A stretch of DNA of 64,000 nt, taken from IMG/VR virus record IMGVR_UViG_3300005670_000014, positions 1 to 64,000 of that record; one strand, written 5' to 3'. The notes under the pieces are model-generated. The model did no database searches, was not told where the DNA came from, and saw only the letters and a list, made by a program, of their open reading frames with translations. Made by a program: the position numbers and the translations under genes. Shown piece by piece: positions 13,962 through 58,732 of this stretch. The DNA is from a virus. Lineage: Duplodnaviria; Caudoviricetes. Positions within the stretch are counted from its first letter, which is position 1. Each line of letters begins with the position of its first letter.

Positions 13962-14004
13962 TGTAGTACCTTTTATGGTAAAAGCCATCCTTGGCAATTA
14001 AGTT

Positions 14005-14208
14005 TTACATCTTAAAAAATGTATCCGACCATGGACCTACTTTGAGTGTCCGCTGACAATTAGCGGGTTTTGAGCAAGTTCGCCAGTTGGCTTCTGGATT
14101 GACACAATGTTCTTTGGCGTGTTTGTACGTGACGAAGGTCCGCAGTACATGTTCTGATTTTTGAGCATGATAAAAGCGAATGATCTTGTAGCTGTATTTT
14201 AGTTTCAT
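14005..14208 (-). CDS. Small hypothetical, tandem paralog
   Basis: YSYKIIRFYH...HCVNPEA..RTC; both end GPW/GAW.D. Confidence 0.65.
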   Translation of the reverse strand: MKLKYSYKIIRFYHAQKSEHVLRTFVTYKHAKEHCVNPEANWRTCSKPANCQRTLKVGPWSDTFFKM

Positions 14209-14534
14209 TCCACATCTCCAAAAAGTTCTTCTTTAGCCGTATTAAAATGTTTTTCAGTAAGCGTAAGTAATTCTTTTTCTATCCCATCTCCAATAGCTGT
14301 TTCATAAAGATCCCATGCCACGTCGGGATCTTCCTCGTCATTCAGTTCCTTAGCAAAGAATTCAAACGGAGTGTATTGACGATAATTCTCTTCAGCTTCC
14401 CATGCCAGTTGTCGAACGGCGTCGAGATATTCATCATATTCCATATCTTCCGTAATTTTGACATCTTTACAATTGCAAGCAACTAAATCTTGACCAAGAT
14501 TAAAACCATAGCGAATGATCGTGTCATTATCCAT
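14205..14534 (-). CDS. Acidic hypothetical protein
   Basis: GGAG RBS; directly downstream of a promoter. Confidence 0.7.
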   Translation of the reverse strand: MDNDTIIRYGFNLGQDLVACNCKDVKITEDMEYDEYLDAVRQLAWEAEENYRQYTPFEFFAKELNDEEDPDVAWDLYETAIGDGIEKELLTLTEKHFNTAKEELFGDVE

Positions 14535-14583
14535 GATAATTCTCCGAAGTGTTGGGGTGCTTTACGCTTTACGGCGTAAAGCA

Positions 14584-14612
14584 ATTTTATCACAGTTTAC
14601 AAGAAGTTGCAA
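14584..14612 (-). promoter_or_regulatory. Early promoter with inverted repeat
   Basis: TTGCAA-17-TAAAAT with TG; GCTTTAC-GGC-GTAAAGC. Confidence 0.75.
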
Positions 14613-14616
14613 ATTT

Positions 14617-14829
14617 TTATTTCAAAAAGTCTTTTGGCTCAGCGCCCACTGCGACCATCCATTCTGCAATGGTAGTAGCCCAGTCTGCATAACCGAGTTC
14701 CCATGCGGCACATTCTTTAACGATCTTGACGGGCGACAGTTGATAAAACTCTTCATCTCGACTTTTGTCATCTTCTTCAAGACCTAATCTGCCACGTAAC
14801 TTTTTTAGCATATACGGTGGTATTGTCAT
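14617..14829 (-). CDS. Hypothetical protein
   Basis: TAATG overlap with the upstream gene. Confidence 0.65.
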   Translation of the reverse strand: MTIPPYMLKKLRGRLGLEEDDKSRDEEFYQLSPVKIVKECAAWELGYADWATTIAEWMVAVGAEPKDFLK

Positions 14830-15533
14830 TAAATGTTCACCTTTTGTTGAATTGCGTTAAGTTCAGCCAATGCGGATTCTTTACAGTATTGATAACCGTA
14901 AAATCCTACACAACTGGTAATGCATTCAAATTCTTTAACGTGATACGTGCTTTCGTAAATCTTTGTCATATCACATGTTTCTTCTGTGCTGTAGATGCTG
15001 TACGAATACACATCCCCAGTTAAATACGTATCTAATTCTTTAAGTTCGGCAACTAGAATTTTTTCCGCTTCTTTCACGGAATATGGTCGTTGCATTTGAG
15101 TTTCAAACGTGTCTTTGGTCATGTAAATGAAACCGATCTGACCACTATCCCACGGACAGCTAAAAGGTTTATCACTAATGGTGATTTCAGAGTGGTCGTA
15201 CATATATACTGGAATGACGCACAGATTGTTTTGTTTCCATTCCTCAACAATTTGATTGAAATGGGCAATTTGTTCTTCATCAATTTCCATATCTTCGAAA
15301 TAAAGTTCATTGTTATGACTAACATAATCTTTTAATTCAGGCATCCATGCCACATCTTCAAAGTGATCAAAAATCCATACATTTAGATTTTTGATGGGTT
15401 CTTGATGGTTTTCATCCGTTTGACCTCCCAATGTATACTTGCTATGCCACGTATACAGAGTTCCTACACAGTCAAACGCTTCTCGTGGATTCTCGGCAAA
15501 TTCATCGGGTTCAACTACGATAAAATGATTCAT
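14829..15533 (-). CDS. Conserved phage hypothetical, paralog 2 of 6666-7361
   Basis: NPREAFDCVGTLYTWH, PVYMYDHS, CPWDSGQIG; GGAG RBS. Confidence 0.75.
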   Translation of the reverse strand: MNHFIVVEPDEFAENPREAFDCVGTLYTWHSKYTLGGQTDENHQEPIKNLNVWIFDHFEDVAWMPELKDYVSHNNELYFEDMEIDEEQIAHFNQIVEEWKQNNLCVIPVYMYDHSEITISDKPFSCPWDSGQIGFIYMTKDTFETQMQRPYSVKEAEKILVAELKELDTYLTGDVYSYSIYSTEETCDMTKIYESTYHVKEFECITSCVGFYGYQYCKESALAELNAIQQKVNI

Positions 15534-15582
15534 GCGGATTCTCCAAGCAGTGTGGTATGGCAGTATTCGTTGCCACGAATGA

Positions 15583-15611
15583 ATTTTAGCACGGATTTGA
15601 AGGTATTGCAA
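15583..15611 (-). promoter_or_regulatory. Early promoter with inverted repeat
   Basis: TTGCAA-17-TAAAAT with TG; ATTCGT-TGCC-ACGAAT. Confidence 0.75.
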
Positions 15612-15640
15612 CTGATTAATGATTAAACTCTGGAGTTATC

Positions 15641-16102
15641 ATGTTATATAAATCTGAATCGGGACATATTTACGAACAAAAGCAGTGTGAAGAGTGTGGA
15701 CACGAATTCTTTCATCGGCGTGATTGCCATGATGAATGCCCGATCTGTAAACGAAAACGGAGATCTTCAAAACCAGATCTGACTGACCCGGCGATCAAAA
15801 GAACTTACAGTAGTTATTACAGTATGTTATCCAGATGTACTAATATAAATCATAAAGATTATCCAAATTATGGAGGTCGAGGCGTGATGGTTCAACCGGA
15901 ATGGATTGAATCTTTTGATCATTTCTTAGCTGATGTGGGATTAAGGCCGGAATATACGAGTTTAGATCGTATTTCGCCCAACAAACATTACACTAAAGAC
16001 AATGTTCGTTGGGCGAATCAGCATGTACAGAACTTAAATAGAAGGAAAAAGTTCCAAGGTCTTTGGTCTAAAGTCTTGAAACCACAAGCGGAAAAACCTT
16101 AA
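15641..16102 (+). CDS. HNH-type homing endonuclease-like protein
   Basis: YYSMLSRC...YGGRGV...W..SF..FLADVG.RP...SLDRI...Y...NVRWA...Q..NRR; N-terminal CxxC/CxxC; inserted antisense to the array. Confidence 0.8.
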   Translation: MLYKSESGHIYEQKQCEECGHEFFHRRDCHDECPICKRKRRSSKPDLTDPAIKRTYSSYYSMLSRCTNINHKDYPNYGGRGVMVQPEWIESFDHFLADVGLRPEYTSLDRISPNKHYTKDNVRWANQHVQNLNRRKKFQGLWSKVLKPQAEKP

Positions 16103-16377
16103 TGGATAAAGCTTGTAGCGTCAAAAGGCTGTTTGGGTTCGTCAATCCATTCTTGATCAATTCCATGGGGTTGATATAGAGCTGCTCGAAAGGTGTTATT
16201 TTGTCGTCCAGCAATCCAGGTGTGCCAGAACTCTTTATGCGCTTGGGCAATCAGTTGGTCAAGTTCTTGTTGAGTGTCCACTTGAATTTCTAATAAATCA
16301 AAACCCGGTCGTTGATCCCAAGGATGCCCGAAATTGGGTGTAAATTGGAAATTTTGTGAATCTTTAAGCGTGGTCAT
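16099..16377 (-). CDS. Hypothetical protein
   Basis: ORF tiling the array. Confidence 0.6.
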   Translation of the reverse strand: MTTLKDSQNFQFTPNFGHPWDQRPGFDLLEIQVDTQQELDQLIAQAHKEFWHTWIAGRQNNTFRAALYQPHGIDQEWIDEPKQPFDATSFIH

Positions 16378-16592
16378 TTTGGATATTCTTCCGTTTCATC
16401 TTCCCAATTAAAATCGGGAGTATTAGGATCTTTATTAATGTGAATACAATTCCAACCTTCGATTGTCATATCTTCAGTAACAATTTCTGGATCTACACCA
16501 TTTAGTTCTTTGGGTGTAAAAATGGCTATAGCAAATCCTTTATCAGCTAATTCTTCCAGTGCTTTTTTAATATGTTCAGGATATGTAATCAT
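16374..16592 (-). CDS. Hypothetical, paralog of 20252-20488
   Basis: Shared ELADKGFA..IFTPKEL.GV.P.IV.E.M...GWN.I...DFNWEDE. Confidence 0.75.
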   Translation of the reverse strand: MITYPEHIKKALEELADKGFAIAIFTPKELNGVDPEIVTEDMTIEGWNCIHINKDPNTPDFNWEDETEEYPK

Positions 16593-17017
16593 TGTTTAAT
16601 GCCTTCTAAAACATCTTCTAGTAATTGAATCATTTCTGTGGGATTGTTTCTAGTTATTTTATATATTGCCGCGCATGTAGAACCTTTAACTCTGACAATG
16701 GGACAGTATTCGTCAGTTTGATTAGAGTAACAACTGCAGTCATCAGGGGGATTAGAGTAATAATTGCAGTCATCAGGGGGATCAAAGTCAGAATATTTTC
16801 TACATAAGGCACACGTCCAGCCAGTGTAAGAGAGTTGTTCTGTTGAATTTTCAATTATAGCATGTTGCTCATAGGTTACTTGGTGTTTTTCAACATTTTC
16901 AGGTAATGCTCCTTTCCATTTTAAAATAGAATGTTTTAAACATTTCTCATCGGTTTTATTGATATATTCACTTGCATCTTTTGTATAGAATTCTTTTTTC
17001 CAACTTTTAAAAGACAT
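16589..17017 (-). CDS. Cys-rich hypothetical with a 10-aa internal repeat
   Basis: CALC...CPI...C; GGAG RBS. Confidence 0.65.
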   Translation of the reverse strand: MSFKSWKKEFYTKDASEYINKTDEKCLKHSILKWKGALPENVEKHQVTYEQHAIIENSTEQLSYTGWTCALCRKYSDFDPPDDCNYYSNPPDDCSCYSNQTDEYCPIVRVKGSTCAAIYKITRNNPTEMIQLLEDVLEGIKQ

Positions 17018-17026
17018 AAAAATCTC

Positions 17027-17305
17027 CTAAGTCTTTAATTTAGTTTTTACAGTTTCTAATCTGCATGACGCGTATGTGCATTTTTGATCGGATTCTCGGT
17101 AAGTAAATCTCATGGGTTTTTTACCCACAAAGCCAAACCAAATATCTCGATCCGGTTCTTTTTCAACGATACCTTTACAATATGTTAAATCTAGTTGTAA
17201 TTTAACTTCAATAGATTTGAATATTTCATATGGAATAATTGATAATAATGTTGTTGTTTTGTTTGGTTTGAACATGACCATCTTTCGTAAAGTGGATATA
17301 GTCAA
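17027..17305 (-). CDS. Hypothetical protein (start uncertain)
   Basis: ORF only. Confidence 0.45.
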   Translation of the reverse strand: MTISTLRKMVMFKPNKTTTLLSIIPYEIFKSIEVKLQLDLTYCKGIVEKEPDRDIWFGFVGKKPMRFTYRESDQKCTYASCRLETVKTKLKT

Positions 17306-17433
17306 AATTGTTTGATGTGTTTATTTTATCATAGTTTTGAAGATATAACAAGTGGTATGAAATTGTTGACAAAAGCGTTATTTTAGCATAATAGCGGATA
17401 ACAGACTCCTCAAATCAGTTCAAGTCCTTAATC

Positions 17434-17766: not shown

Positions 17767-17918
17767 TTCGTCTGGTAAGCGGCTGAGACGGTTATTTTAG
17801 CCACTTTCTAGCCACTCCGCTATCCCAACACGTCCTGGGTGGGAAAGTGGCTTAAATCGTCTCACAAGTGGCTTTCTCCGTAGATCAATTTTCAGCAGAA
17901 CTTTTTTCTTTTGCCCCA

Positions 17919-17962: not shown

Positions 17963-17976
17963 ACTACACGAAGAAC

Positions 17977-18228: not shown

Positions 18229-18296
18229 GTTAATTCTCCGTTGGTGAATGGTGTACACCACACTCCATGATCTTATGGAGTGTGGTGATGAAAGTC

Positions 18297-19237: not shown

Positions 19238-19438
19238 TCAAAGAGTCGTTTCATCGACATTTGCAAAAGGCAACTCTTCTTTAGTTTCCCATTGCGTCAC
19301 AATCGCATCATGAAGATGCTCCGTCAGCATCTCATTAATGCCGGGAAATTCTAGTAGCTTGTCGGGTGACAAATTACTGATCTCACCAAACAAGCCTTTG
19401 GTGAACTCTTCATCAGTCATCTGGGAATAATCAGTCAT
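19238..19438 (-). CDS. Small acidic protein, tandem paralog
   Basis: MTDYSQMTDEEF...PGI.E.L.EH.H. Confidence 0.7.
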   Translation of the reverse strand: MTDYSQMTDEEFTKGLFGEISNLSPDKLLEFPGINEMLTEHLHDAIVTQWETKEELPFANVDETTL

Positions 19439-19646
19439 CGTCACTCTCCGTGAGCATGTTTTCATACTTTTCATCGTCTTGATGTTTTTGTTCCCAACGA
19501 TCTAGTACTTCGTTGTGGAAGTGTTCACTAAGGATCTCATAAATACCAGGAATTTGTAATAAGTAATAAGCCACACAATCTTCGTTAATGATTTCACTCA
19601 GTTCTAAATCAAATTCTTCATCAGTCATTTTGGAATAATCAGTCAT
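19431..19646 (-). CDS. Small acidic protein, tandem paralog
   Basis: MTDYSKMTDEEF...PGI.E.L.EH.H. Confidence 0.7.
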   Translation of the reverse strand: MTDYSKMTDEEFDLELSEIINEDCVAYYLLQIPGIYEILSEHFHNEVLDRWEQKHQDDEKYENMLTESDDD

Positions 19647-19688
19647 TGTAATTCTCCGTAGTGAAGCCATCCTTGGCTTGGTATGGGA

Positions 19689-19976
19689 TTAAATTAGTGG
19701 CATCTGACGTTCGTACTTGTCAACCACCTCACAAATTCGTTTCGCCATCTTGCAAGCATGTTCATTACGCAGATCGTAATATCCTTCTGCATATTGTTCA
19801 TTCAAGCCTTCAATAAACTTCAAGCACAGTTCCATCTTGGCTTGAACAAGTGTTCGATGATCTTTAAGCATCAATTCGGCTAACTTGGCTATATCAGTAC
19901 GATCTCCGGCATTGACAACGCGGGAAATACCTTCAGCCGTGGTGATAACGAGTTCTTTCAGTTCATCGCGTGTCAT
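19689..19976 (-). CDS. Hypothetical protein
   Basis: GGAG RBS; directly after a promoter. Confidence 0.7.
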   Translation of the reverse strand: MTRDELKELVITTAEGISRVVNAGDRTDIAKLAELMLKDHRTLVQAKMELCLKFIEGLNEQYAEGYYDLRNEHACKMAKRICEVVDKYERQMPLI

Positions 19977-20488: not shown

Positions 20489-20537
20489 GTCAATTTCTCC
20501 GTAGTGTGGGGAGTTATACGTTTACTGGCGTAAACGT

Positions 20538-20566
20538 AGTTTATCATGGAATTAAAGAGTTAGCAA
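20538..20566 (-). promoter_or_regulatory. Early promoter with inverted repeat
   Basis: TTGCTA-17-TAAACT with TG; TACGTTTAC-TGGC-GTAAACGTA. Confidence 0.8.
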
Positions 20567-24181: not shown

Positions 24182-24231
24182 ACTTAATTTCTCCGTAATG
24201 TGGATTGTTATACGCTTACTGGCGTAAGCGC

Positions 24232-24260
24232 AGTTTAGCACGGAATTAAAGAGTTAGCAA
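24232..24260 (-). promoter_or_regulatory. Early promoter with inverted repeat
   Basis: TTGCTA-17-TAAACT with TG; CGCTTAC-TGGC-GTAAGCG. Confidence 0.8.
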
Positions 24261-24264
24261 ACAT

Positions 24265-25133: not shown

Positions 25134-25220
25134 CGTGAATTCTCCAGTGGAATAGTTGTACTGGAATATACAGATGTATCTTCCAGTACAACCACTCTGT
25201 ATTGAGTGGTTGTACTTTTA

Positions 25221-25562
25221 CTAGATGTTCATTAACATTCTAGCAATTTTTCGACCCACCTGCTCTACATTGTTAGCCTTCACTACGAACACATCTTGTC
25301 CATAAGCCGTCTTGAGTGACAGTCCGTTGGTAGATTGAAGCGCCACCAAATCTTCAATCAATGAATCTTCCATGCACACCAGCATCGGAATGTCCAGCAT
25401 CCTTAACACATTCACCAGTTCACCTATGCCCGGTGTGGTTGCGGCAACTTCCATCTTTCCACCAATCGAAACCATGGTAAAGAATTTGGATGGATTGTGA
25501 AAGTTTCTTGCTTTGGGAAGTATCTTGGACGTTTCGTAGTCTTGGCGATTTTCAATCATCAT
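25221..25562 (-). CDS. Hypothetical protein
   Basis: GGAG RBS before MMIENR. Confidence 0.65.
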   Translation of the reverse strand: MMIENRQDYETSKILPKARNFHNPSKFFTMVSIGGKMEVAATTPGIGELVNVLRMLDIPMLVCMEDSLIEDLVALQSTNGLSLKTAYGQDVFVVKANNVEQVGRKIARMLMNI

Positions 25563-25657
25563 TAATTCTCCGATTAGTGGGGGTATATCACACAATACAA
25601 CAAATCTGCTTGCTGTATTGTGTGATATACCCACATCTTATGATGTGGGTATTCAGT

Positions 25658-25871: not shown

Positions 25872-26129
25872 TTAATGTTGTCCAGAATCTCGGACGCGCC
25901 AAGTGTAACCATCATCATCTACACCGACGCACTCCAACAACTGCAATGAACTCCCTAATTCTTCCAGTACAGTATTGAGTTTGTTCTTGATGGGTTCCAT
26001 GTCATCCCAATACATGTGATCTGGTATAGCTTCTCCGTAAGCTATGACCGCATCTTCATTAATCTCGGATTCTAGCCAATCCATAATTTCTTGATCGTGC
26101 AACTTGCCAGACCATTCGATCTTTAACAT
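25872..26129 (-). CDS. Acidic hypothetical protein
   Basis: GGAG RBS. Confidence 0.65.
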   Translation of the reverse strand: MLKIEWSGKLHDQEIMDWLESEINEDAVIAYGEAIPDHMYWDDMEPIKNKLNTVLEELGSSLQLLECVGVDDDGYTWRVRDSGQH

Positions 26130-26169
26130 GTTAGTTCTCCGTAAAGTGCCATCCTTGGCAATGGAATCA

Positions 26170-26379
26170 TTAGTTTACTTTAACAACACAACCATCTTCA
26201 ATGGTTGCAGTAGCATACCATTTATGAGGCTGTGGGTAGTGTGGTCCTTCCAATGCTACCTTACCATTCTTGGGAGTATTGCCACCAAAAGGTCCGGGCT
26301 GGAAAATGGTCACGCGATCACCTTTGGCAATTGCTTCCTTCAAAGCTTTCTTTGTTTGAAAATTGGTGGAAGTATACAT
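26170..26379 (-). CDS. Conserved small phage protein (NFQTKK.LKEA...EGPHYP.PHKWYA family)
   Basis: Recognisable motif; GGAG RBS. Confidence 0.75.
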   Translation of the reverse strand: MYTSTNFQTKKALKEAIAKGDRVTIFQPGPFGGNTPKNGKVALEGPHYPQPHKWYATATIEDGCVVKVN

Positions 26380-27758: not shown

Positions 27759-27867
27759 TACACTCCACTCTGCCAATACGCCGGGGTGATGTAAATTTTC
27801 ATCTTAATCATTGCAATTCATCAGATTTTACAGATAAAGTCTTAACGCCACTTCTCAATCTCGCCCC

Positions 27868-28732: not shown

Positions 28733-28782
28733 ACTTAATTTCTCCGTAGTGTTGGGGTGTTTACGCTTACTGGCGTAAGCGC

Positions 28783-28811
28783 AGTTTAGCACGGTTTAAA
28801 AGAGTTTGCAA
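28783..28811 (-). promoter_or_regulatory. Early promoter with inverted repeat
   Basis: TTGCAA-17-TAAACT with TG; CGCTTAC-TGGC-GTAAGCG. Confidence 0.8.
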
Positions 28812-29117
28812 CTATGGAACGATCTTGGGTGTACGAAGTACCACAAATTCTTCCAATGTCGCACCGAGTTCTTCCATTTTGTCGGCAGTGATCTCCATAC
28901 CCCGTAAATCTGCTGGAATGTTTAATACCAGATGGAAGTAACGTCCTTGTCGATCCCAAATTTCGGCAGCGAGATGGATGGGTAGTGTTCCCAACACCAC
29001 GTCACCTTTTTCGACAGTCTTCACATCGAAATGCTCAACAATCTGAGCATCAAAGCCTTTACGCGCTGCCCAATCTTTGGCACCTTGATGCCGGGTCACA
29101 AAATAAGTCTTAGCCAT
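28812..29117 (-). CDS. csx16: Csx16 (Cas_VVA1548)-family protein, stand-alone; candidate viral ring nuclease
   Basis: TYFVTRHQGAKDWA...VEHFD...GDVVLGTLPIHLAAEI...GRYFHLVL.IP..LRG.EIT...M...GATLEEF covers the whole Csx16 pattern. Confidence 0.85.
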   Translation of the reverse strand: MAKTYFVTRHQGAKDWAARKGFDAQIVEHFDVKTVEKGDVVLGTLPIHLAAEIWDRQGRYFHLVLNIPADLRGMEITADKMEELGATLEEFVVLRTPKIVP

Positions 29118-29199: not shown

Positions 29200-29257
29200 C
29201 AAACACCTCCATTAATTCGTGGATAAAAGCCATCCTTGGCTCAAGAATGCTGTTTAG

Positions 29258-29908
29258 CTAGTTTTTGAATTGCCGCCAGCACTCTCTAACATGGTCTACA
29301 ACATTCATCGGATTATGACCTCCGATCTTGTTGCGTGGATGTTCTTCATCAATCCATGGGGAGTCGTTATACTCTAGCCAGTGCCAAAATTGGTTTTGGA
29401 CTCTGGCTACAGCTTCTTTACCACCCAAGTCGCCTTCACACGCGACTAGCCATTCACGTCTGACGTATACGGGATGCGTCGGCAGTATAAATTCTGCTGA
29501 TGTAGCGGGGATGCTACCTTCGGGCCGCTTGACATCTACCCACCACGCATACGGTGCGTGTTGGTAATTCTTCAATTCACTATCTAACACTGGAAAATCT
29601 TCCAGTGCTGATGCACCCAAGCACAAGTAGCCGTAGTAATCTCCATCCTCAACGAGTTCGTCATCATCCGTGGGAAACGGAATCTCGGCAATGAACACAG
29701 TGATCTCCACCGGACCCAATCTGTGTTCCGGGTCAATGGTATCCCACAGCGGGATGGGTGTCTTAACCTTCCATAGTTGGCCCACATTTGCATCTTTCGG
29801 CTGTACATGTGCAAAGTCTGCCCGTGCTTTGGTGGTGCGGGCGATGGCGTCTTTCACGAACGCTGGAACTTCTACCACTTGAGCAGTGGCCTTTTGAAAC
29901 TCGGACAT
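29258..29908 (-). CDS. Hypothetical protein
   Basis: GGAG RBS. Confidence 0.7.
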   Translation of the reverse strand: MSEFQKATAQVVEVPAFVKDAIARTTKARADFAHVQPKDANVGQLWKVKTPIPLWDTIDPEHRLGPVEITVFIAEIPFPTDDDELVEDGDYYGYLCLGASALEDFPVLDSELKNYQHAPYAWWVDVKRPEGSIPATSAEFILPTHPVYVRREWLVACEGDLGGKEAVARVQNQFWHWLEYNDSPWIDEEHPRNKIGGHNPMNVVDHVRECWRQFKN

Positions 29909-30012
29909 GGAGTATCTCCGGGTGGATGAAACAACAAATGGGTTTTAATGCAAGCATACCTTGTGACGACATGCTTGCATTAAAACCCACTCTTGCGAGT
30001 GGGTTATGGGGA

Positions 30013-31957: not shown

Positions 31958-32045
31958 GACAATATCTCCAGTTGTGGATGGGTACATCGGTATATACATT
32001 TGCATATACCGATGTACCCACTCTTGCGAGTGGGTACTAAAACTC

Positions 32046-32523: not shown

Positions 32524-32617
32524 GGCATTTTCCTCTTTTATGGATGGGTACATCAGTAAGTACATCTTGCACTTACTGATGTACCCACACCTTTCACAGT
32601 GTGGGTACGGAAACGAA

Positions 32618-32854: not shown

Positions 32855-33078
32855 TACAGTTTCTCCACGACGATGGTGATCGTTTCCTGCTCGTTTGAGC
32901 AACTAAATCCTTCGCGCACACTTCCTTGTATGCTATACCCTTTTTGCTGCAAAAGCCCGCGAAGCTCTTTCAAAAACTGCACCATCTTGGTGCCATCTTT
33001 GACATCTGTCATCCGACGACCTTGCCGCAGCACATCTACAGCATACGAATTACGGGGTAAAATACCTGTCAAGTTCAT
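32854..33078 (-). CDS. Hypothetical protein
   Basis: GGAG RBS before MNLTGI. Confidence 0.6.
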   Translation of the reverse strand: MNLTGILPRNSYAVDVLRQGRRMTDVKDGTKMVQFLKELRGLLQQKGYSIQGSVREGFSCSNEQETITIVVEKL

Positions 33079-34807: not shown

Positions 34808-34940
34808 GACTCAATTCCCCAAGTGAGTAGAGCGATCACATGCTCTCTGAAAAGACAAAAATCTCTGAAAAAGACAGTTGAAAAAACGTCGGGAAAAACA
34901 ACTGTTATTCCCGACGTGATTTGTTTCATATGAAACAAAT

Positions 34941-41186: not shown

Positions 41187-41357
41187 TTATTCTCTAAACA
41201 AGCAAAATAGACAAATATCGCCGATAACAGCAACTATAATCATTAGTTGCAATGCTAGCGCTTCAATACTGTAGCCGCCAGCTAAGAGCGTAAAACTTAA
41301 AACAATAAGCACTAACAAGCTTACAACAAACTCCAAAAAGTCTGGAAACGTTTTCAT
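41187..41357 (-). CDS. Small two-helix membrane protein
   Basis: GGAG RBS before MKTFPD; hydrophobic. Confidence 0.55.
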   Translation of the reverse strand: MKTFPDFLEFVVSLLVLIVLSFTLLAGGYSIEALALQLMIIVAVIGDICLFCLFRE

Positions 41358-41400
41358 CGTAATACTCCAAGTTAGTGACACATCCTTGTGTCAGTGTGTG

Positions 41401-41610
41401 TTAGTCAGTGCTACGTTTTGTTACATTGAGTTCAACATCATACCCTCTTGCATACAAGAATTCCTTTAATTCTAGTAAAGTTTTACACCAAACTTTAGTG
41501 TAACCTTTTGGCGCATCTTTACTTACAGCTTCTGGCAAGTAGTAAAAATGGTCTACTATCCAAGTAGCTAGTTCATTGTTACCAATGTTATCAAGGCTAA
41601 TCTTAGTCAT
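41401..41610 (-). CDS. Hypothetical protein
   Basis: AGGGA RBS. Confidence 0.6.
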   Translation of the reverse strand: MTKISLDNIGNNELATWIVDHFYYLPEAVSKDAPKGYTKVWCKTLLELKEFLYARGYDVELNVTKRSTD

Positions 41611-41853: not shown

Positions 41854-41914
41854 TGTTGTTTCTCCATGTTTGAGTTTATGCCAGTGTTTCATATGAAACA
41901 CTGGCTGTTATGGG

Positions 41915-42825: not shown

Positions 42826-43298
42826 TCACAAACACTAGGCGAAGCCCTTGGAGACAGCGCTTATTCTATAAACCGAACCTAACGCCAATTTTTCAAAGCT
42901 TGTTTCATACGAAACAAGCACATAGGACTTAATCTATAAACCCTAGCAGAAATCTAACACCAATTTTTCAAAACATTGTTTCATATGAAACAAAATAAAA
43001 CCTTGACCATACACAAAACCAAATGACCACTTCAAAGTAGTGTTTCATATGAAACAAACCAAATTATGTACTGCGTATTTTTCTCTCACATTAGCTAACC
43101 ATGCCAAATACCTCACCTTCTTCTCTAACCACCCACTACCACCAATTACCATTATATCTAACACATGTCACACAACCTAACAACCCAATACTCACACACT
43201 GACACAGTGATTCCATTCGTAATTTTTCATCTAGTCAAAACAGTTCCATAAAAATTTACAGATTATTTCTAACACCTGAAATTTCGTTTCAGTAAAAT

Positions 43299-43328
43299 TT
43301 GACAGTGATACTGTCCATCATATATAGT
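43299..43328 (+). promoter_or_regulatory. Rightward sigma70 promoter of the replication/head operon
   Basis: TTGACA-18-TATAGT. Confidence 0.55.
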
Positions 43329-43361
43329 ATCCATTCATTCATTATATTGGAGTGCTTGATC

Positions 43362-43535
43362 ATGCTAGAACATTACAACATTCAAATTGCCGTGTTAGAA
43401 AAACTGGTAGATTCACATAAAACAGAACTGACTGTACGACATGTGTTGGATGAATTAGAATATCTGAAACACTGTATACGCACTATGGAAGATGAAGTAT
43501 ATCATTGGGAGTTGTATTTCGGACGGTTACCTTAA
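43362..43535 (+). CDS. 57-aa hypothetical protein
   Basis: GGAG RBS before MLEHYN. Confidence 0.55.
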   Translation: MLEHYNIQIAVLEKLVDSHKTELTVRHVLDELEYLKHCIRTMEDEVYHWELYFGRLP

Positions 43536-43596
43536 TTGTTAATATGCTTCATGGCCTTCTGCCATGAAGCATTCTTTAAGAATATAGAGTTTAAGT

Positions 43597-44298
43597 ATGA
43601 ACGCTATTGGTAAAAAATACGGAAAACTAACTATTATCGCTTATGTAGATTACACTTGGAGTGCTCGGTATTTATGTCAGTGTGAATGTGGAAATACAAA
43701 AGTAGAAGCGTTGAGTAATTTAAATCGTAGAAAACGAACTCGATTTGATTGTGGTAAATGTCCAAAAACTGATGAAGAATACAAACAATGGTTTTTATCG
43801 AAAGTGGTTAAAACAGATTCATGTTGGCTGTGGAATCAATCCTTAGATCGAGATGGTTATGGTTCTGTTAACATAGAAAACATTCGATTAAAAGCTCATC
43901 GTGCAGCTTACTTTTTATTTGTAGGTGACTTTGAAGATGATAAATTTGTATGTCATACGTGCGATAATCCACGTTGTGTAAATCCAGATCATTTGTTTTT
44001 GGGAACTCATCAAGACAACGAACGTGATAAAGATTTGAAAGGTCGTCGCCCGATTACTTCAAATGGCAAAGTGACTGCTTTAAAAGACGCAGATGTAATA
44101 ACCATTCGAGAGCAGTTTGAATTATTATCAGGTACTAATTTACAACGTTATCATTATCTTGCTGAAAAATTCCAATGTAATGCACGAATCATAGAACGTA
44201 TTGTTAAACGACAATTCTTTAAAAATGTGAAGTCTAAAGAAATTAAACCTTCGAATAAAGTCAATCCATTTTCTTTTTTATCGAGACTAAAACAATGA
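43597..44298 (+). CDS. HNH homing endonuclease
   Basis: CWLW...DGYG...AHR..Y...VCHTCDNPRCVNPDHLFLGT.QDN..D. Confidence 0.9.
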   Translation: MNAIGKKYGKLTIIAYVDYTWSARYLCQCECGNTKVEALSNLNRRKRTRFDCGKCPKTDEEYKQWFLSKVVKTDSCWLWNQSLDRDGYGSVNIENIRLKAHRAAYFLFVGDFEDDKFVCHTCDNPRCVNPDHLFLGTHQDNERDKDLKGRRPITSNGKVTALKDADVITIREQFELLSGTNLQRYHYLAEKFQCNARIIERIVKRQFFKNVKSKEIKPSNKVNPFSFLSRLKQ

Positions 44299-51081: not shown

Positions 51082-54000
51082 ATGTCTTTTCAATCCGTAT
51101 CTAACTCTGTATATTCCAATAAATATCAATTGTTCGATAAGCATGGCAATGAGGTCGATGAGAGTAGAAGTCATAGTTTTATGCGAGTGGCTCAAGCATT
51201 GGCTAAAAATGAAAAAGATTGTCGATATTGGACGGATGTCTTTTTTGAAGCAATGGTGAGTGGTGCAATACCTGCTGGAAGAATTATGAGTAATGCGGGT
51301 GCTGAGGAACACAAACCAAATACTTCGCAGATCAACTGCGTCGTTGCAGATACAATCTATGACTCTATCGAATCAATTGGACAATCCGTAAAAGATTCTT
51401 TAATTACTCTATCTGGTGGTAGCGGAATTGGTTACGACTTCAGTTCTTTACGTCCCAAAGGATCTTTTGTTAATGGAGTGGGTAGCACCACATCTGGCCC
51501 GTTACCTTTTGCTGATATTTTTGATAAAGGCTGTTTTACCATTGCATCAGCCGGTGGAAGACGTGGTGCACAGATGGCAACATTTGATTTACGTCATCCA
51601 GATGTGTTAGCTTTTATTAAAGCTAAACGAGAAAATGGACGATTTCGACAATTTAATATTAGTGTGCTCGTTCCTCATTCATTTTTTAATGAAGAAAAAG
51701 ATTGGATATTTCGTTTTCCCATTCGTAGTTCTGATCCTGCATTGGATACTGCGGAAACGATGTGGGATACATGGCATATTAAAGATGCTGCATATATCAC
51801 GAATGAACATGGACAGACTTTATTTAAAATTTATGGCAAGATGCCAAAATCAGAATTATGGAATTTAATACTTCAATCTAATTATGAGTATGCTGAACCA
51901 GGTGTTATTTTTATAGATCGCGTGAACGAAGAAAATAATTTATGGTTTTGTGAAGAAATTAGAGCTTCTAATCCGTCAATGCCAGCGGGAACTTTGGTAC
52001 ACACCAATCTTGGTATTTTGCCTATTGAAGAATTAGAAAATCAACTTTTTTCAGTAAGATCTTTAGATGGTTGTTGGGCACCTGCAAGTTGTCGTTTGTC
52101 AGGAGAAGCCGAAACTCTTATGGAAATTAATTTTGGTAACTATAAGACTATCCAAGCTACACCTAAACATCTATGGCCGGTTTTAAATTCTTTTGGAAAA
52201 ATTGTAAAGAAAGAAACTAGTGAATTAAAAGCTGGTGATTTAATTCCTCTCAATCTAAATCTTCCATTAGAATTCAATGTAGACCCTACATTGACTGAAG
52301 ATGAGGGATTTTTAGTGGGCGTTTTTATGGGAAATGGCTGGCTTTCATCCCGCGTTGATGGTACAGGTTATGCTTTTGGGATTAGTTTTAACAAGTTGGA
52401 TATTAAAGTAGCTGAAAGAACCCTGTCAATTTTAAATCAGTACAAAAACAATCCTTCGTCCATCAAGGAAAATGCACATGAATTAAGTATTCAACTTACT
52501 TCAAAGGCATTTATTGAATGGTTTATGTTGCGTTTTGGAATTTTTCCTAAAACTAAAGATTTACCTTTAGTTTTATTTAAAAGCAATGATTACTTCATTC
52601 GAGGTTTTATTGATGGGTTGTTTTCAACGGATGGCAGTATTTCTGAAGGCAATGATTTTCGTGGAGGTTGTATAATTTTTAGTCAAAAATCAGAGTCTTT
52701 TACTATGAACTTAGCTAAATTGCTGAGTTTTTATGGAATAAAAACATCTGTTTGGAAAACTGAAAGTTCTAACACTGTATTTCCAAATGGAAAATCGTAT
52801 AATAAAAGTTACACAGCTTTCGCTGTGAAACTTGCTAATTCAGCATCAAAAGCATTTGCTTCGTTATTTAATTTAACTTGTGAAAGAAAACAAGCAAAAT
52901 TAGATTTTTTGGTTTTAAGAAAACCAAAAAAATCTAAAATAACAAATCTTTATAATGAAGTAAAAACTGTTACATATGTTCAAGGTGCTCATAAAGTTTG
53001 GGATATTTCAGTACAACATGATCAACATGTTTTTCCAACTGAATGGGGTTATACAGGAAACTGTGGCGAACAGATGCTTCCACCAAACAATTCATGTTTA
53101 TTAGGTTCTATTGATCTGACTCAGTTTGTTGAACAACCTTTCACGGATGATGCTCATTTTGATTTCAGTAATTTTTCCAACACTGTAGATGTATTTACAC
53201 GAATGTTGGATAATGTAGTAGAGTTTAATAATTTACCGTTAAAGTCTCAACAAGATGAAATTTTACAAAAACGTCGGCATGGAATGGGCTTTTTTGGTTT
53301 AGGCTCTGCTTTAATTATGCTGTGTATTCATTATGATTCTAAAACAGCGTTAGACTTTGCAGAAAAAGTAACGAAATTGATGGCAATTCGTGGGTATGTC
53401 ACGGGTTGTGCATTGGCTGAAGAAAAAGGTTGTGCACCCGTACTGAATGAGTATTTTGAGATTACTCCAGAGATTGTTAGAAAGAATGAATTATTTAAAG
53501 ATCAGTTAGGACAAAAAGTTAAAGGTATTGAATTATTTTTGGCAAGTCCATACATGCAACGTTTATTAGCAGATGAACCTGAATTAAAAGATCGATTGTT
53601 GAGACATGGCTGCCGTTTTAGTCATCACACCTCTATTGCACCTACGGGTACAATCTCTTTAGCATTTGGAAACGGAGCATCTGGAGGTATCGAACCTTCT
53701 TTCTCCCATTGTTATTTTCGTAATTTAACAGTACAAGATAAGAAAACTCGACAACAGGAAGCCGTGTACAGTAAAGAGTTTTTGTTGTATAAAGAATTAT
53801 ATGGACAAAATAAAACGGACGAAGAATTGTTAAAACATCTACCGGATTATTTTGTGACTGCGGATACCATTTCATGGAAAGCCCATATAGACATGGTGGC
53901 TGTCGTACAAAAGTGGGTGGACTCTTCAATTAGTAAAACCTGTAATGTACCCACTAATATTACTTTAGAAGAGTTTAAAGGTATTTATGATTATGCCTAT

Positions 54001-54225
54001 AAAGTAGGTTGTAAGGCAGTCTCCACATTTCGTTATAATCCTGAAACTTTAGGGTCGATTTTAAGTCGAAGTGAAGACTTAGCCAATAGTAGGTATGAAT
54101 TTAAATTAGCTGATGGTACGGTGATCCAATGTGCAGGTGGTGATCGTGTTGAATACGATGGTGAAATAACCACGGCTGAAAATTTGTTTTCCGCTTTGAA
54201 AGAGAATACTTATGGAAAATTCTAA
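51082..54225 (+). CDS. nrdJ: Class II (B12-dependent) ribonucleotide reductase large subunit, intein-containing
   Basis: PAGR, NC, GGGIG, RRGAQM, EPGVIFID, split NP|CGEQ, C.LGSI, IAPTGTIS, DSSISKT. Confidence 0.92.
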   Translation: MSFQSVSNSVYSNKYQLFDKHGNEVDESRSHSFMRVAQALAKNEKDCRYWTDVFFEAMVSGAIPAGRIMSNAGAEEHKPNTSQINCVVADTIYDSIESIGQSVKDSLITLSGGSGIGYDFSSLRPKGSFVNGVGSTTSGPLPFADIFDKGCFTIASAGGRRGAQMATFDLRHPDVLAFIKAKRENGRFRQFNISVLVPHSFFNEEKDWIFRFPIRSSDPALDTAETMWDTWHIKDAAYITNEHGQTLFKIYGKMPKSELWNLILQSNYEYAEPGVIFIDRVNEENNLWFCEEIRASNPSMPAGTLVHTNLGILPIEELENQLFSVRSLDGCWAPASCRLSGEAETLMEINFGNYKTIQATPKHLWPVLNSFGKIVKKETSELKAGDLIPLNLNLPLEFNVDPTLTEDEGFLVGVFMGNGWLSSRVDGTGYAFGISFNKLDIKVAERTLSILNQYKNNPSSIKENAHELSIQLTSKAFIEWFMLRFGIFPKTKDLPLVLFKSNDYFIRGFIDGLFSTDGSISEGNDFRGGCIIFSQKSESFTMNLAKLLSFYGIKTSVWKTESSNTVFPNGKSYNKSYTAFAVKLANSASKAFASLFNLTCERKQAKLDFLVLRKPKKSKITNLYNEVKTVTYVQGAHKVWDISVQHDQHVFPTEWGYTGNCGEQMLPPNNSCLLGSIDLTQFVEQPFTDDAHFDFSNFSNTVDVFTRMLDNVVEFNNLPLKSQQDEILQKRRHGMGFFGLGSALIMLCIHYDSKTALDFAEKVTKLMAIRGYVTGCALAEEKGCAPVLNEYFEITPEIVRKNELFKDQLGQKVKGIELFLASPYMQRLLADEPELKDRLLRHGCRFSHHTSIAPTGTISLAFGNGASGGIEPSFSHCYFRNLTVQDKKTRQQEAVYSKEFLLYKELYGQNKTDEELLKHLPDYFVTADTISWKAHIDMVAVVQKWVDSSISKTCNVPTNITLEEFKGIYDYAYKVGCKAVSTFRYNPETLGSILSRSEDLANSRYEFKLADGTVIQCAGGDRVEYDGEITTAENLFSALKENTYGKF
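51976..53061 (+). mobile_element. Intein with LAGLIDADG endonuclease (362 aa) in NrdJ
   Basis: ASNP|SMPAGTLV...TEWGYTGN|CGEQ; LVGVFMGNG and FIDGLFSTDG motifs. Confidence 0.9.
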
Positions 54226-55233: not shown

Positions 55234-55234
55234 C

Positions 55235-55540
55235 ATGCGGCAACAAGAGTTTGATACACTATTAAAGTGGTTAGCGTATCCCGCATTGTTCAAAAATGCC
55301 ATTCGTAAATCTGTGGAAACAGGTTTAGCATTTAGAATCTTAACGGATCAAACGCTAACGGATGAGTTGAAAAATCAATTTAAAGTATTAATGCAAGAAG
55401 CAATTCCTCAAGCTGATTTACAACAACTAATGAAGGTATATGAACGAACCTTTCCACAGATTCAACATCAAAATTTTAATAATCAGATTTATAAATTACA
55501 TTCTGATGTTTTAAGAATTACACCATCGCAAAGAGTTTAA
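55235..55540 (+). CDS. Hypothetical protein
   Basis: ORF tiling the operon. Confidence 0.6.
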   Translation: MRQQEFDTLLKWLAYPALFKNAIRKSVETGLAFRILTDQTLTDELKNQFKVLMQEAIPQADLQQLMKVYERTFPQIQHQNFNNQIYKLHSDVLRITPSQRV

Positions 55541-55992
55541 TGATGAATATTATGACCCCGGCTGAAGCTTTTGAACGTTATTATGATTTAGGTGTTAAGC
55601 GTAATTTATTACGTTTATCTAAGATCATTGGTATTGAATTTGATTTATTGTCCAGTTGGGCGGATGGTTATGCATGGGATGAAAAAGTTGAAGCACGGGA
55701 TAAAGAAGTTAATCGAGTTTTTGAACAAGTATACAAACAACGTACTTTAGACATTCGAAATCGACTAGTAAGACAGATTGATACTTTATTAAAAGATATG
55801 GAAAGTTGTAGTTTGGGGTTGCCATTCGGGGTAACGTCTCCTGCTGAATTACGTTCAGTTGCACAGGCGTATCGAGAGTTAGTTCAAGCGAATGTATTAG
55901 CGATGACTAAAGGTGTGGATATGGGTGGTGGTAAAGCGCCTAAGACTTGGAGTGATTTGTTAGAGCAAATTGAAAATACGGAAACTGAATGA
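55540..55992 (+). CDS. Putative terminase small subunit
   Basis: AFERYYDLG..R.L..LS...L..WA..Y.W.E..EARD HTH pattern, directly before terL. Confidence 0.55.
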   Translation: MMNIMTPAEAFERYYDLGVKRNLLRLSKIIGIEFDLLSSWADGYAWDEKVEARDKEVNRVFEQVYKQRTLDIRNRLVRQIDTLLKDMESCSLGLPFGVTSPAELRSVAQAYRELVQANVLAMTKGVDMGGGKAPKTWSDLLEQIENTETE

Positions 55993-55993
55993 C

Positions 55994-58669
55994 ATGGATC
56001 GTAAAAAGAATTGGAAAAGTGAACTTGTTTTACGTGGACGACAAGATCCAGCTTGGTGGATTGAGAGTGTTTTAGGTGGAAGTCTTTGGGAAAAACAAAA
56101 AGAGATTTGCAAAGCTTTAGTTAAGTATGAAAGAGTCGCGGTAGCAGGTGCGTTTGGCTTTGGCAAATGTGTTGCTTTTGGTGAGCGCATAGTACTTTCC
56201 AATGGCAATGTTGCTAACGCTGAAGATTTGATTGGTAAATCTTTTAAAGTTCTTGCTTGGGATGAAAAAACTGGACAACAAATCGAAGCTGAGGCTTTTG
56301 CTGAAGATAATGGTTTAAAACCAGTTTGTAAGATCACTACTAAATCGGGGCGTTGCATTATTCGTACTGAAAACCATCCTTTATACACTTGCTATCTTCC
56401 AAAACGAAATGTTCATCGGATACCAACATTGCCAAAATGGAGACCTATTAATAATTTAAGGGGTAATATGGTTGTTGCCGTACCTTTGAAATTGAATGTT
56501 TTAGCAACAAAAACAATTACAGAAGATGAAGCTAAGTTGATTGGCTATTTATTGGGAGATGGCGGTACGACAACTGGTATAACCTTTACACAAGAGTTGG
56601 GAAAAACTCTTGATGATTTTAGAGATATTGTTAATCGTTTTAACTGTGATGTTATCAAAAAAACTGATTCACGATACGATTATCGTGTGATTGGACGTGA
56701 ACGTACTGAAGATAATATAAATAGATACAATCCACTGTTGGAAAAATTTCGTGCATGGGGATTAATTGGACATAAAGCTAAACATAAATATTTACCAGAT
56801 TTTATTTGGGAATTAAATGATGATTCTTTAGCTTTAATTATGAATCGTTTATTTGCTTGTGACGGTTGGGTGTATATACCAAAAACAGATCGTGAAACAT
56901 CTAGAATTGCTATTACTTTAGCATCTGAAAAATTAATTCGTGATATTGAATTAGTGATGCTTCGTTTGGGTATTTATGGAAATGTTTCTTATGGACAAAA
57001 AACTTGCAATGGTAAAAAGTTTGACGCTTGGACTTGGCAAGTTTTTAAAGGTGTAGAAGTTTTAAAATTTATTGATCGTGTTGGAATTTTTGGAAAAGAA
57101 ATTAAATTAGAAAAATGTCGTCAATTTGTTTTAACAAAAACCAGTTTTAAGCATACACTGGAATGGCCTTTTAAAAGTCTTCCAGAAGGTTATGCTTGGG
57201 AACAAATAAGATCGATTGAATATTTAGGATTGCAACCAACTGTGGGTATTTGTGTACCGGAATATAATACGTACTTGACTACGTTTGTAGAACATAACAC
57301 TCATTTGGCCGCGAGATTAATGTTATGGTTTTTGCTCTGTCATCCAAATTCTAAAGTAGTATCCACGGCTCCCACACAGAGGCAGGTGAAAGATTTACTT
57401 TGGTCAGAATTACGTGCAGCACATGCTAAAGCAATTATGCCGTTAGGTGGAGAACTTTTACAGTTACAATACAAATTGGGCGAAGATCATTTTGCGGTTG
57501 GTTTTAGTACAGATTCTGAAAATATAGATCGATTTACGGGCTACCATGCACCTCATCAGTTGGTAGTTTTTGATCAAGCTGGAGGTATTGATAGTCCAAT
57601 TTGGGAAGCCGCAGAAGGTTTAATGACTTCTGCAAATTGTCGTTGGTTAGCTATTTCCAATACAGCTATTTCCAGTTGCGAATTAGCTAACATCTGTATG
57701 CCAGATCGTAAAACCAAGTTTGGTGACTGGCACGTTATTCGGGTAAAAGCAACTGAAACGCCTAATGTCTTAGCTGGTAAAAATATTTATCCCGGTTTGA
57801 TTGCTTATGATTGGGTAAAAAAGCGTGAAGAAGCTTGGGGTCGGGATGATCCATTATACAAAATCTTCGTAGAAGCAGAGTTTATTCCTGACTCTGAAAT
57901 GGTGGTTGTACCGTACAAAGCGATTGTTGATGCATTCAATATGAATGGGGAGTTGGGTTCGCATATTGAAGTGGGCTTAGACGTAGCGCGAATGGGGACG
58001 GACAGTACCGTATGGACTGCGGTTAGTGGTTCACGGGTGATGGAAGTCAAGCGAGTCACGGGCAATACCACCATGCAAGTGGTAGGTTTGACGGTAGAGT
58101 TTGTAAAGCATTTACAAGAAACTTATGGTTTACCCGTAACTGCGGTAAAGATTGACGTAATTGGTTTAGGTGCGGGTGTATATGATCGATTGATAGAATT
58201 GGATGACGACAATATTGAAATTCCCGTAGTGGCAGTCAATAATGCGGAAGTCAATATTGTGGTAGATAAAGAACGTTATTCTAATGTTCGTGCGGAGATG
58301 GCTTGGGCATTTCGTTATCGAATTGATCATGGTAATGTGGGATTGGCGGCGGTACAAGTTCACGATTATGAAATTAAAGAGTATATTCGTGGTGATATTC
58401 AAGCCATGCGTTATAAGATCACTTCACAAGGTAAGATTCAGTTATTACCCAAAGAAGAACTTAAAAAGAATTTAGGACGATCTCCTGACTATTGGGATTC
58501 ATTAGTTATGGCATTTGAAACACCGGGTGGTGGACCTCCGATGCTGGAATCGATATCTTCAAAGAAAGAACGTGAAGAAGAGTTTTCAATTTCAGAAGAA
58601 GAGTGGCAAATTTTAATGGGTACGCGGATGCCCATGGATGATCGATTTTTCCGAGACGTACAATTTTAA
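55994..58669 (+). CDS. terL: Terminase large subunit, intein-containing
   Basis: VAVAGAFGFGK|T Walker A, APT.RQ, VVFDQA.G Walker B-like, ISN, GLDVAR.G.D nuclease, D..D at the C-terminus. Confidence 0.9.
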   Translation: MDRKKNWKSELVLRGRQDPAWWIESVLGGSLWEKQKEICKALVKYERVAVAGAFGFGKCVAFGERIVLSNGNVANAEDLIGKSFKVLAWDEKTGQQIEAEAFAEDNGLKPVCKITTKSGRCIIRTENHPLYTCYLPKRNVHRIPTLPKWRPINNLRGNMVVAVPLKLNVLATKTITEDEAKLIGYLLGDGGTTTGITFTQELGKTLDDFRDIVNRFNCDVIKKTDSRYDYRVIGRERTEDNINRYNPLLEKFRAWGLIGHKAKHKYLPDFIWELNDDSLALIMNRLFACDGWVYIPKTDRETSRIAITLASEKLIRDIELVMLRLGIYGNVSYGQKTCNGKKFDAWTWQVFKGVEVLKFIDRVGIFGKEIKLEKCRQFVLTKTSFKHTLEWPFKSLPEGYAWEQIRSIEYLGLQPTVGICVPEYNTYLTTFVEHNTHLAARLMLWFLLCHPNSKVVSTAPTQRQVKDLLWSELRAAHAKAIMPLGGELLQLQYKLGEDHFAVGFSTDSENIDRFTGYHAPHQLVVFDQAGGIDSPIWEAAEGLMTSANCRWLAISNTAISSCELANICMPDRKTKFGDWHVIRVKATETPNVLAGKNIYPGLIAYDWVKKREEAWGRDDPLYKIFVEAEFIPDSEMVVVPYKAIVDAFNMNGELGSHIEVGLDVARMGTDSTVWTAVSGSRVMEVKRVTGNTTMQVVGLTVEFVKHLQETYGLPVTAVKIDVIGLGAGVYDRLIELDDDNIEIPVVAVNNAEVNIVVDKERYSNVRAEMAWAFRYRIDHGNVGLAAVQVHDYEIKEYIRGDIQAMRYKITSQGKIQLLPKEELKKNLGRSPDYWDSLVMAFETPGGGPPMLESISSKKEREEEFSISEEEWQILMGTRMPMDDRFFRDVQF
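56168..57298 (+). mobile_element. Intein with LAGLIDADG endonuclease (377 aa) in TerL
   Basis: GK|CVAFGE...VEHN|T; LIGYLLGDG and RLFACDG motifs. Confidence 0.92.
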
Positions 58670-58732
58670 ATTTTTATTGACAAGGATGTAATTTCATGGC
58701 ACAGTATTCGAATCAGACTATTAGGCTTATTC

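Follow-up and report, generated by a model that had tools for sequence, protein, structure and literature searches.

AGGA-loop hairpins between early genes of an uncultured phage resemble CsrA/RsmA sites and recur in unrelated phages

AGGA-loop hairpins in promoter-less early gene gaps

The window studied here is the first 64 kb of an 88.8-kb viral contig from IMG/VR (IMGVR_UViG_3300005670_000014, here G000; CheckV completeness 68%), and our subject is a set of short hairpins with an AGGA loop that lie between its early genes and resemble binding sites of the host protein CsrA/RsmA. About 100 small early genes, mostly without known function, occupy the minus strand from ~43000 down to ~6000. 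A divergent control region at 42826-43597 is followed on the plus strand by replication and structural genes, including those for a primase, an SbcC-like protein, NrdA, terminase, portal (58733) and major head protein (61790). When cultured phages were searched with megablast and tblastn, no close relative of G000 was found, and the best portal match reached 27%.

Listing every early intergenic gap in sense orientation gave two classes. Gaps of the majority class are ~80 nt long and carry a sigma-70-type promoter (TTGCAA, 17 nt, TGnTAAACT), a 5′ hairpin and a stereotyped ribosome-binding site (RBS), GGAGAAUUAAnAUG. The gaps with an AGGA hairpin are promoter-less and measure 40-43 nt (55 nt at 29227) from the upstream stop codon to the next Shine-Dalgarno sequence (SD); the hairpin begins 7-15 nt past the stop and the SD follows 6-16 nt beyond the hairpin. 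An earlier note on this DNA, made from the sequence alone, had placed five such hairpins on the minus (sense) strand, between genes and shortly upstream of an SD. All of these coordinates and contexts were confirmed, and the SDs at 19653 and 26137, which are ACGGAG, had also been read correctly.

Four of the hairpins contain an exact copy of GCCAAGGATGGC, which was found on the minus strand only, whereas the fifth is built on a different stem (UGACACA; Table 1). The core CAAGGAUG, with AGGA in the loop, is common to all five, and all of them also contain CAAGGATG. The predicted minimum-energy fold includes the hairpin in 5/5 cases, either as an AGGA tetraloop or as an AAGGAU hexaloop closed by a C-G pair, on a stem of 4-7 bp. 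Hairpins with CAAGGATG numbered 5 against 0.49 expected (maximum 3 in 300 first-order Markov simulations). For CAAGGATG itself 9 occurrences were observed and 2.2 expected, and for the 10-mer with at most one mismatch 12 and 3.1, respectively. Within the early block, five of the six sense-strand copies of CAAGGATG fall into the 19% of the sequence that is non-coding. A chance origin of the five hairpins is excluded.

The note had added a further site on the plus strand, at 58680-89 before the portal gene. ACAAGGATGT is present there, but we do not count the site as a member, because it does not fold into a hairpin, its AAGGA is the plain SD of a 15-codon open reading frame (ORF; ATG 58696, 9 nt past ACAAGGATGT) between the terminase and portal genes, and its TG is not kept in the relative G001 described below, which is 86% identical in this comparison.

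The stems of the five hairpins are weak and lack a U tract, and what comes next is an SD and not a U run. A scan for intrinsic terminators listed none of them and reported only an alternative pairing at 29249-29231. No Rfam family matched the hairpins at gathering or at permissive thresholds. An upstream ORF starting from the AUG inside AAGGAUGG was considered and rejected, as there is no SD at the right distance and the frame is inconsistent. Pairing of the spacer with the SD for translational coupling was likewise dropped, since no consistent complementarity to GGAG was seen in the A/C-rich spacers.

Table 1. Positions and surroundings of the AGGA-loop hairpins in the window
Hairpin	Sequence	Position	Copy of GCCAAGGATGGC	Strand	Upstream side	Downstream side	Loop GGA to SD GGA
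1	GCCA-AGGA-UGGC	13984-13995	13984-95	-	9 nt past TAA of gene 14005-14208	SD AAAAGG, ATG 13961, gene 13767-13961	
2	AAGCCA-AGGA-UGGCUU	19664-19679	19666-77	-	9 nt past TAA of gene 19689-19976	SD ACGGAGAA at ~19650-19657, ATG 19646, gene 19431-19646	15 nt
3	UGCCA-AGGA-UGGCA	26147-26160	26148-59	-	9 nt past TAA of gene 26170-26379	SD ACGGAGAA, ATG 26129, gene 25872-26129	14 nt
4	GAGCCA-AGGA-UGGCUU	29227-29242	29229-40	-	15 nt past TAG of gene 29258-29908	SD GGAGG, ATG 29202 of 27-codon hydrophobic ORF	
5	UGACACA-AGGA-UGUGUCA	41376-41393		-	7 nt past TAA of gene 41401-41610	SD UUGGAG, ATG 41357, gene 41187-41357	
Probable sixth member	GCAUAC-AAGGAA-GUGUGC (C-A-A-G-G-A-A-G)	32916-32933		-		SD AAGGA, TTG start 32902	

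The probable sixth member, which the earlier note does not list, has no stop codon directly upstream. The two minus-strand genes that flank hairpin 1 are tandem paralogues with 37% identity, and a single copy is present in the relative G005.

Among the other early gaps, ~20 on the minus strand between 8150 and 37100 share one architecture: TTGCAAACTCTT, ~9 variable nt and TGCTAAACT, then a covarying hairpin with the loop CGCCAG at the transcript start, followed by ACCCAC and the RBS GGAGAAUUAAnAUG (for example 14535-14616, 20489-20559, 24182-24264 and 28733-28811). These CGCCAG-loop hairpins are a second sequence-specific hairpin class within the same early operons. In the minus-strand gaps 25134-25220, 25560-25657, 29909-30012, 31958-32045 and 32524-32617 two hairpins stand in succession, and the 5′ arm of the first, GUACCCAC, is repeated after the second; an alternative pairing could form just ahead of the RBS. 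Copies of the palindrome GTTTCATATGAAAC, which look like operator sites for a dimeric DNA-binding protein, are clustered in the divergent control region (42890-43050) and also occur at two gene ends (34920-34940 and 41880-41905). On the plus strand, NrdA (51082-54225, 1047 aa) is interrupted at about residues 407-573 by an endonuclease-like insert, which may be an intein or a homing endonuclease, and the terminase large subunit (55994-58669, 891 aa) has an extra N-terminal region of ~440 aa. Past the window, at 67104-81092 of the contig, a single ORF of 4662 aa occupies the tape-measure position after two small chaperone-like ORFs, implying an exceptionally long tail.

Conservation in relatives and spread among unrelated phages

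Two relatives of G000 were compared with the window. The sequence of G001 (65 kb, ~80% nucleotide identity) sets in at window position 27865. The early region is covered by G005 (111 kb), whose metagenome also yielded two other relatives. G005 has eight copies of CAAGGATG, all on the sense strand, and five of these are intergenic hairpins. Four of the five window hairpins have a positional counterpart in G005 after an orthologous upstream gene (53-84% amino-acid identity), and at three orthologous junctions the 12-mer is unchanged while the surrounding spacers have diverged. At hairpin 2, for instance, the 12-mer is identical and the spacers differ, whereas the counterpart of hairpin 1, at 87117, reads CGCCAAGGACGGCG in place of GCCAAGGAUGGC. 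Hairpin 3 is kept after its orthologous upstream gene, with homology stopping just beyond the hairpin; hairpin 4 is retained in G005, but G001, with a different upstream gene, lacks it. Homology between G000 and G005 or G001 tends to break at or next to the hairpins, and the genes downstream often differ. The element thus acts as the edge of exchangeable cassettes and yet is under purifying selection itself.

To see the element beyond this group we scanned IMG/VR with several patterns, each followed by N4-18 and GGAGAA. A context was scored as having the full layout when an ORF of at least 50 codons ended no more than 30 nt upstream and was followed by the hairpin, an SD and the start codon of an ORF of at least 40 codons. 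With GCCAAGGATGGC, counted after one gut-phage coding family had been set aside, 26 of 63 distinct contexts among the matches listed had the full layout. Changing the base before GGA to C, G or U (C > G > U) gave 19/76, and the alternative stem GACAAGGATGTC (GACA/TGTC) gave 11/40. The antisense control GCCATCCTTGGC yielded no full layout in 26 contexts, and when GGA was broken (GCCAAGHATGGC) the layout was seen in 3 of 81 contexts among the matches listed. GGA is thus needed, whereas the N positions of the loop are free. Dozens of unrelated phage contigs share a common layout of UAA, a 7-10 nt A/C-rich spacer, hairpin, SD and AUG. The five hairpins belong to a widespread, real phage element that is not private to G000.

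The carriers are unrelated to G000 (no tblastx match at E 1e-8), and their GC content ranges from 0.30 to 0.62. Most carrier genomes have one or two copies and a few have five or more; within single genomes the copies keep to one strand (8 vs 0, 6 vs 0 and 5 vs 1). The 12-mer starts 8-10 nt past the upstream stop codon, with the base of the stem at 7-9 nt. The spacer is A/C-rich and G-poor without a shared sequence, and ahead of some copies all three reading frames are closed by stops. Upstream genes are often of very highly expressed kinds (major head protein in at least 6 of 40, SSB in 3 of 40). Downstream genes are unrelated to one another, and neither the upstream nor the downstream genes form one family.

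Aligning 71 distinct layout-positive copies gave exactly six invariant columns (C8, A9, G11, G12, A13 and G15), which define the pattern C-A-N-G-G-A-N-G. Both N positions vary, also at orthologous sites: the loop A is replaced by C between L099 and L384, and U and C alternate after GGA between G000 (13984) and G005 (87117). The fifth stem pair, which the search patterns left free, is paired in 62 of the 71 copies (GC 30, AU 15, CG 9, UA 4). The covariation score of the stem was 0.27 compared to 0.086 in shuffles, of which none of 500 reached 0.27, and it was also far above that of slid controls.

The densest array observed lies in L311 (IMGVR_UViG_3300017777_005812), where five CANGGANG hairpins with the form GGCCA-C/A-GGA-C/U-GGCC, covering both N variants, stand within 2.3 kb (258-2553), each before a small gene. 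A large gut-phage family that is also present in Segatella copri has the 12-mer within a conserved stretch of coding DNA, YLMLPNKEVDSDGFYAKDGYLEN (L020, L022, L027 and ~47 more loci, from metagenome 3300045988 and others); these gut-phage matches were rejected as members because they are a coding coincidence. A scan of genome contigs returned mostly chance or coding matches from all phyla, with the exception of four phage-type copies and an integrase leader in Rhizobiales. No such hairpin was present in Vibrio phage VP2, a 45% relative of one carrier, or in the 50 kb read of Pelagibacter phage HTVC027P.

Candidate binders of the element

E. coli SELEX of CsrA ligands gave the consensus RUACARGGAUGU in hairpins of ~4 bp, with ACA 100% conserved, and published recognition by CsrA/RsmE involves GGA in the loop of a ~4-bp hairpin with flanking CA and UG (PMC7652899). 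The 8-nt core of the G000 hairpins equals CANGGAUG, and the core of the flanking consensus (A/U)CANGGANG(U/A) is present in 5/5. Hairpin 5 matches the SELEX consensus at 11 of 12 positions, while the GCCA copies lack the first A of ACA and the last U and thus agree only in part at the outer positions. CsrA tolerates a change of A to C before GGA and an exchange of U and C after it. With C-A-N-G-G-A-N-G invariant in 71 copies and a covarying stem, the match to the CsrA/RsmA consensus is stronger than the earlier note could have judged. The loop GGA and the GGA of the SD are 14, 15, 17 and 25 nt apart at four of the G000 sites; at site 1 the SD is AAAAGG and has no GGA. Across the family this distance is 13-25 nt (mode 14-19), which lies inside the 10-63 nt range (optimum ~18) over which CsrA bridges two sites (PMC7652899).

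Our best reading, to which we give a probability of about one half, is that each hairpin and the GGA of the downstream SD (14-25 nt) would together form a two-site operator for a host CsrA/RsmA dimer, located on the polycistronic early mRNA. The hairpin, presenting A-N-G-G-A-N closed by the invariant C-G pair, would anchor the dimer with high affinity. The other RNA-binding face would then cover the SD and lower translation of the single downstream cistron, which would be uncoupled from its upstream neighbour and have its output set by free host CsrA. The comparisons show the motif with its strand, fixed layout, invariant letters and covariation, its spread among unrelated phages and the csrA-positive hosts of the nameable carriers; from these we infer both that CsrA is the binder and that it represses rather than protects or activates. 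G000 thus probably ties single genes to the host CsrA/RsmA switch.

The earlier note had offered three mechanisms, and of these the gating of chosen genes fits what was found, whereas the sponge and the phage-encoded CsrA are unlikely. A sponge is disfavoured because most carriers have one or two copies, each before one cistron, and in G000 there is one hairpin per junction spread over 13984-41393. As to a phage-borne protein, a search of the 68% complete contig of 88.8 kb for PF02599 (CsrA) gave no match at any E up to 10, and 29 carrier records, including 8 with a completeness of at least 90%, gave none either. When 15 carrier genomes were compared, no protein family was common to all at BLAST sensitivity; the largest clusters spanned 8 and 6 genomes and consisted of long ORFs of ~370-780 aa. 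With unrelated carriers, no common protein family and no CsrA gene, a conserved host factor is the economical binder.

The hosts that can be named agree with such a factor. One carrier is identical to Pseudomonas phage PMBT14 (host P. fluorescens). In PMBT14 the major head gene gp05 and the head fibre gene gp06 are 40 nt apart, and the hairpin fills this interval; the same hairpin is present in phage Almagne. Another carrier is the Erwinia amylovora jumbo phage pEa_SNUABM_7. Both Pseudomonas and Erwinia possess Rsm/Csr systems, and three gammaproteobacterial metagenome-assembled genomes that contain carrier contigs all have a PF02599 gene. Every carrier with a nameable host is therefore a phage of a csrA-bearing gammaproteobacterium. 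E. coli and Salmonella relatives of PMBT14 have an intrinsic terminator at the same spot after the major head gene, which suggests that the hairpin steps down expression of the next gene.

Several observations weigh against CsrA as the binder. No host could be named for G000 from megablast and tblastn against cultured phages, from a protein atlas of QueE or from Csx16 in 400 genomes. The portal proteins of one carrier family share 40-45% identity with portals of phages that infect Pelagibacter, Roseobacter, Caulobacter and cyanobacteria, and the host of this family may therefore lack CsrA. GGCCAAGGAUGGCC is also part of an integrase-gene leader in Methylocapsa, Methylocella and Rhizobium; in several Rhizobiales (L164 2206-2236 in Methylocapsa aurea; likewise L178, L203, L225, L230 and L262) it is followed after 5 nt by the SD of a conserved Phage_integrase-family gene of 210 aa. 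In the one Methylocapsa genome searched csrA was not found. Within the group of G000, CAAGGATG does not occur in the 65 kb of G001, where both comparable sites lie within non-homologous segments. The commonest stem, GCCA/UGGC, departs from the ACA of the SELEX consensus. Since nearly every SD of G000 contains GGAG, the 'second site' in the SD is not specific evidence. Finally, the upstream stop is UAA in 25 of 26 GCCAAGGATGGC copies and in 14 of 19 loop-variant copies, even at ~60% GC. CsrA binding does not explain this fixed UAA, the 7-10 nt distance or the A/C-rich spacer, which hint at a link with termination or re-initiation and suit a ribosome-centred mechanism at least as well.

Such a mechanism, which we consider rather unlikely, would treat the AGGA loop as an SD-like landing or stand-by site, or as a catch for ribosomes terminating at UAA, that sets the level of re-initiation on the next cistron without a regulator protein. 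AGGA is the SD core. Reckoned from general ribosome footprints, the base of the stem would lie roughly at the leading edge of the terminating ribosome, and the UAA bias, the fixed distance and the unstructured A/C-rich spacer all suit this idea, as does the frequent position after heavily translated genes. It would function also in bacteria without csrA such as Methylocapsa. However, pairing with the anti-SD leaves unexplained the invariant C...G closing pair and why U or C, and not G, follows GGA. The base before GGA is free, with C second commonest, although A would lengthen the anti-SD pairing, and there is no start codon at SD distance from the loop. Also unlikely is a different phage or host factor, either an RNA-binding protein or an endoribonuclease, by which the mRNA would be masked or cleaved between cistrons, as by a coat protein at its operator or by T4 RegB at GGAG. 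It would account for a sequence-specific loop on a variable stem that is strictly strand-specific and placed between cistrons, and the many early G000 genes of no known function leave room for such a protein. Yet no protein family is common to the unrelated carriers at BLAST sensitivity, a known and widespread host protein has a matching specificity, and the Rfam searches described above matched no family.

A hairpin without a specific binder, which merely stabilises mRNA or marks a cassette boundary, seems to us improbable. The breaks in homology at or near the hairpins, with differing genes downstream, would be expected of it, and the three-frame stops before some copies and the terminator in the same place in the relatives of PMBT14 point the same way. 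What it does not predict is the invariance of C-A-N-G-G-A-N-G across unrelated phages over the whole GC range, or the loss of the layout when GGA is changed (3/81 among the matches listed), and the stems are weak and have no U tract. The inverted repeat formed by the arms could also be read as a DNA-level operator or promoter site of the form GCCA-N4-TGGC. We regard this as highly improbable: orientation relative to the genes is absolute in the antisense scan and strongly biased in the within-genome strand counts given above, and the gaps leave no room for a transcript start and a leader ahead of the SD. Moreover, other stems (GACA/TGTC, UGACACA) serve equally well, which indicates that the fold is conserved and not a DNA word.

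Taking the CsrA operator as the working model, hairpin 4 is of particular interest. The stop codon of the 27-codon ORF behind it abuts the start of an early gene on the minus strand (28812-29117) that matches the Pfam family Cas_VVA1548/Csx16 (PF09652, E 2e-32), and the two appear to be translationally coupled. No CRISPR locus was found near the Csx16-family gene; its product is therefore a candidate ring nuclease directed against type III CRISPR. In Serratia, RsmA represses cas mRNAs (PMC8450108). We may speculate, with little confidence, that a portable 40-nt module (UAA, A/C spacer, CANGGANG hairpin, SD), common to phages of csrA-bearing bacteria, hands single cistrons to the host Csr/Rsm system, that hairpin 4 gates the Csx16-coupled peptide, and that counter-defence would be freed by the same drop in RsmA that activates host CRISPR-Cas.

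In the literature we found no description of a conserved, widespread cis element that places individual phage cistrons under CsrA/Rsm, and searching by hairpin sequence returned only unrelated eukaryotic matches. If CsrA does bind, phages would routinely read the growth and quorum state of the host gene by gene, structural operons included, as in the case of the element after the PMBT14 major head gene. This can be tested directly, as two carriers are cultured and their hosts are amenable to genetics and have Rsm systems that are well studied. The element may also be used as a simple 12-20 nt annotation marker for post-transcriptional control in phage genomes.

Comparison with known systems

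The lambdoid nut site, in which boxA and boxB follow the cro stop, resembles the element in several respects: a short hairpin with a purine-rich loop stands a few nt past a stop codon, a linear tract precedes it, and most genomes have one or two copies. However, boxB has a GNRA-like pentaloop without GGA on a 5-bp stem, whereas the loop of the phage hairpins is A-N-G-G-A-N; neither the GNRA-like pentaloop nor a preceding boxA consensus was found in them. In contrast to nut, the hairpins are also followed directly by SDs, and some of them belong to late operons, where they come after the major head gene.

Repeated GGA-loop hairpins of the same type are known from the sponge RNAs CsrB/CsrC and RsmX/Y/Z. 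There, many sites are combined in one non-coding RNA, whereas G000 has one per gene junction over 27 kb and most carriers have one or two in all. Host leaders and sponge RNAs are the known locations of CsrA/Rsm sites, and csrA genes are known in some phages. CsrA/RsmA homologues are encoded by phages and plasmids (PMC8450108), for example gp28 of PTXU04 (PMC11879866). Like these, the carriers would be mobile elements engaging the Csr/Rsm network; the former bring the protein, while the hairpin carriers have cis sites and no csrA gene.

The closest likeness is to the high-affinity sites of CsrA, RsmA and RsmE. Known examples are the hcnA SD hairpin bound by RsmE and the glgC leader, with a hairpin and an SD site. 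Unlike these host sites, the phage sites, which are predicted, lie inside a polycistronic mRNA right after the preceding stop and not in the 5′ leader of a host gene, their stem is usually GCCA/UGGC and not ACA/UGU, and they have a fixed UAA and an A/C-rich spacer. In common with them, the phage hairpins hold GGA in the loop of a ~4-bp hairpin and have the pattern C-A-N-G-G-A-N-G immediately before a cistron; at four of the five G000 sites a GGA in the SD also lies within bridging distance, although almost all SDs of G000 contain GGAG and this feature does not discriminate.

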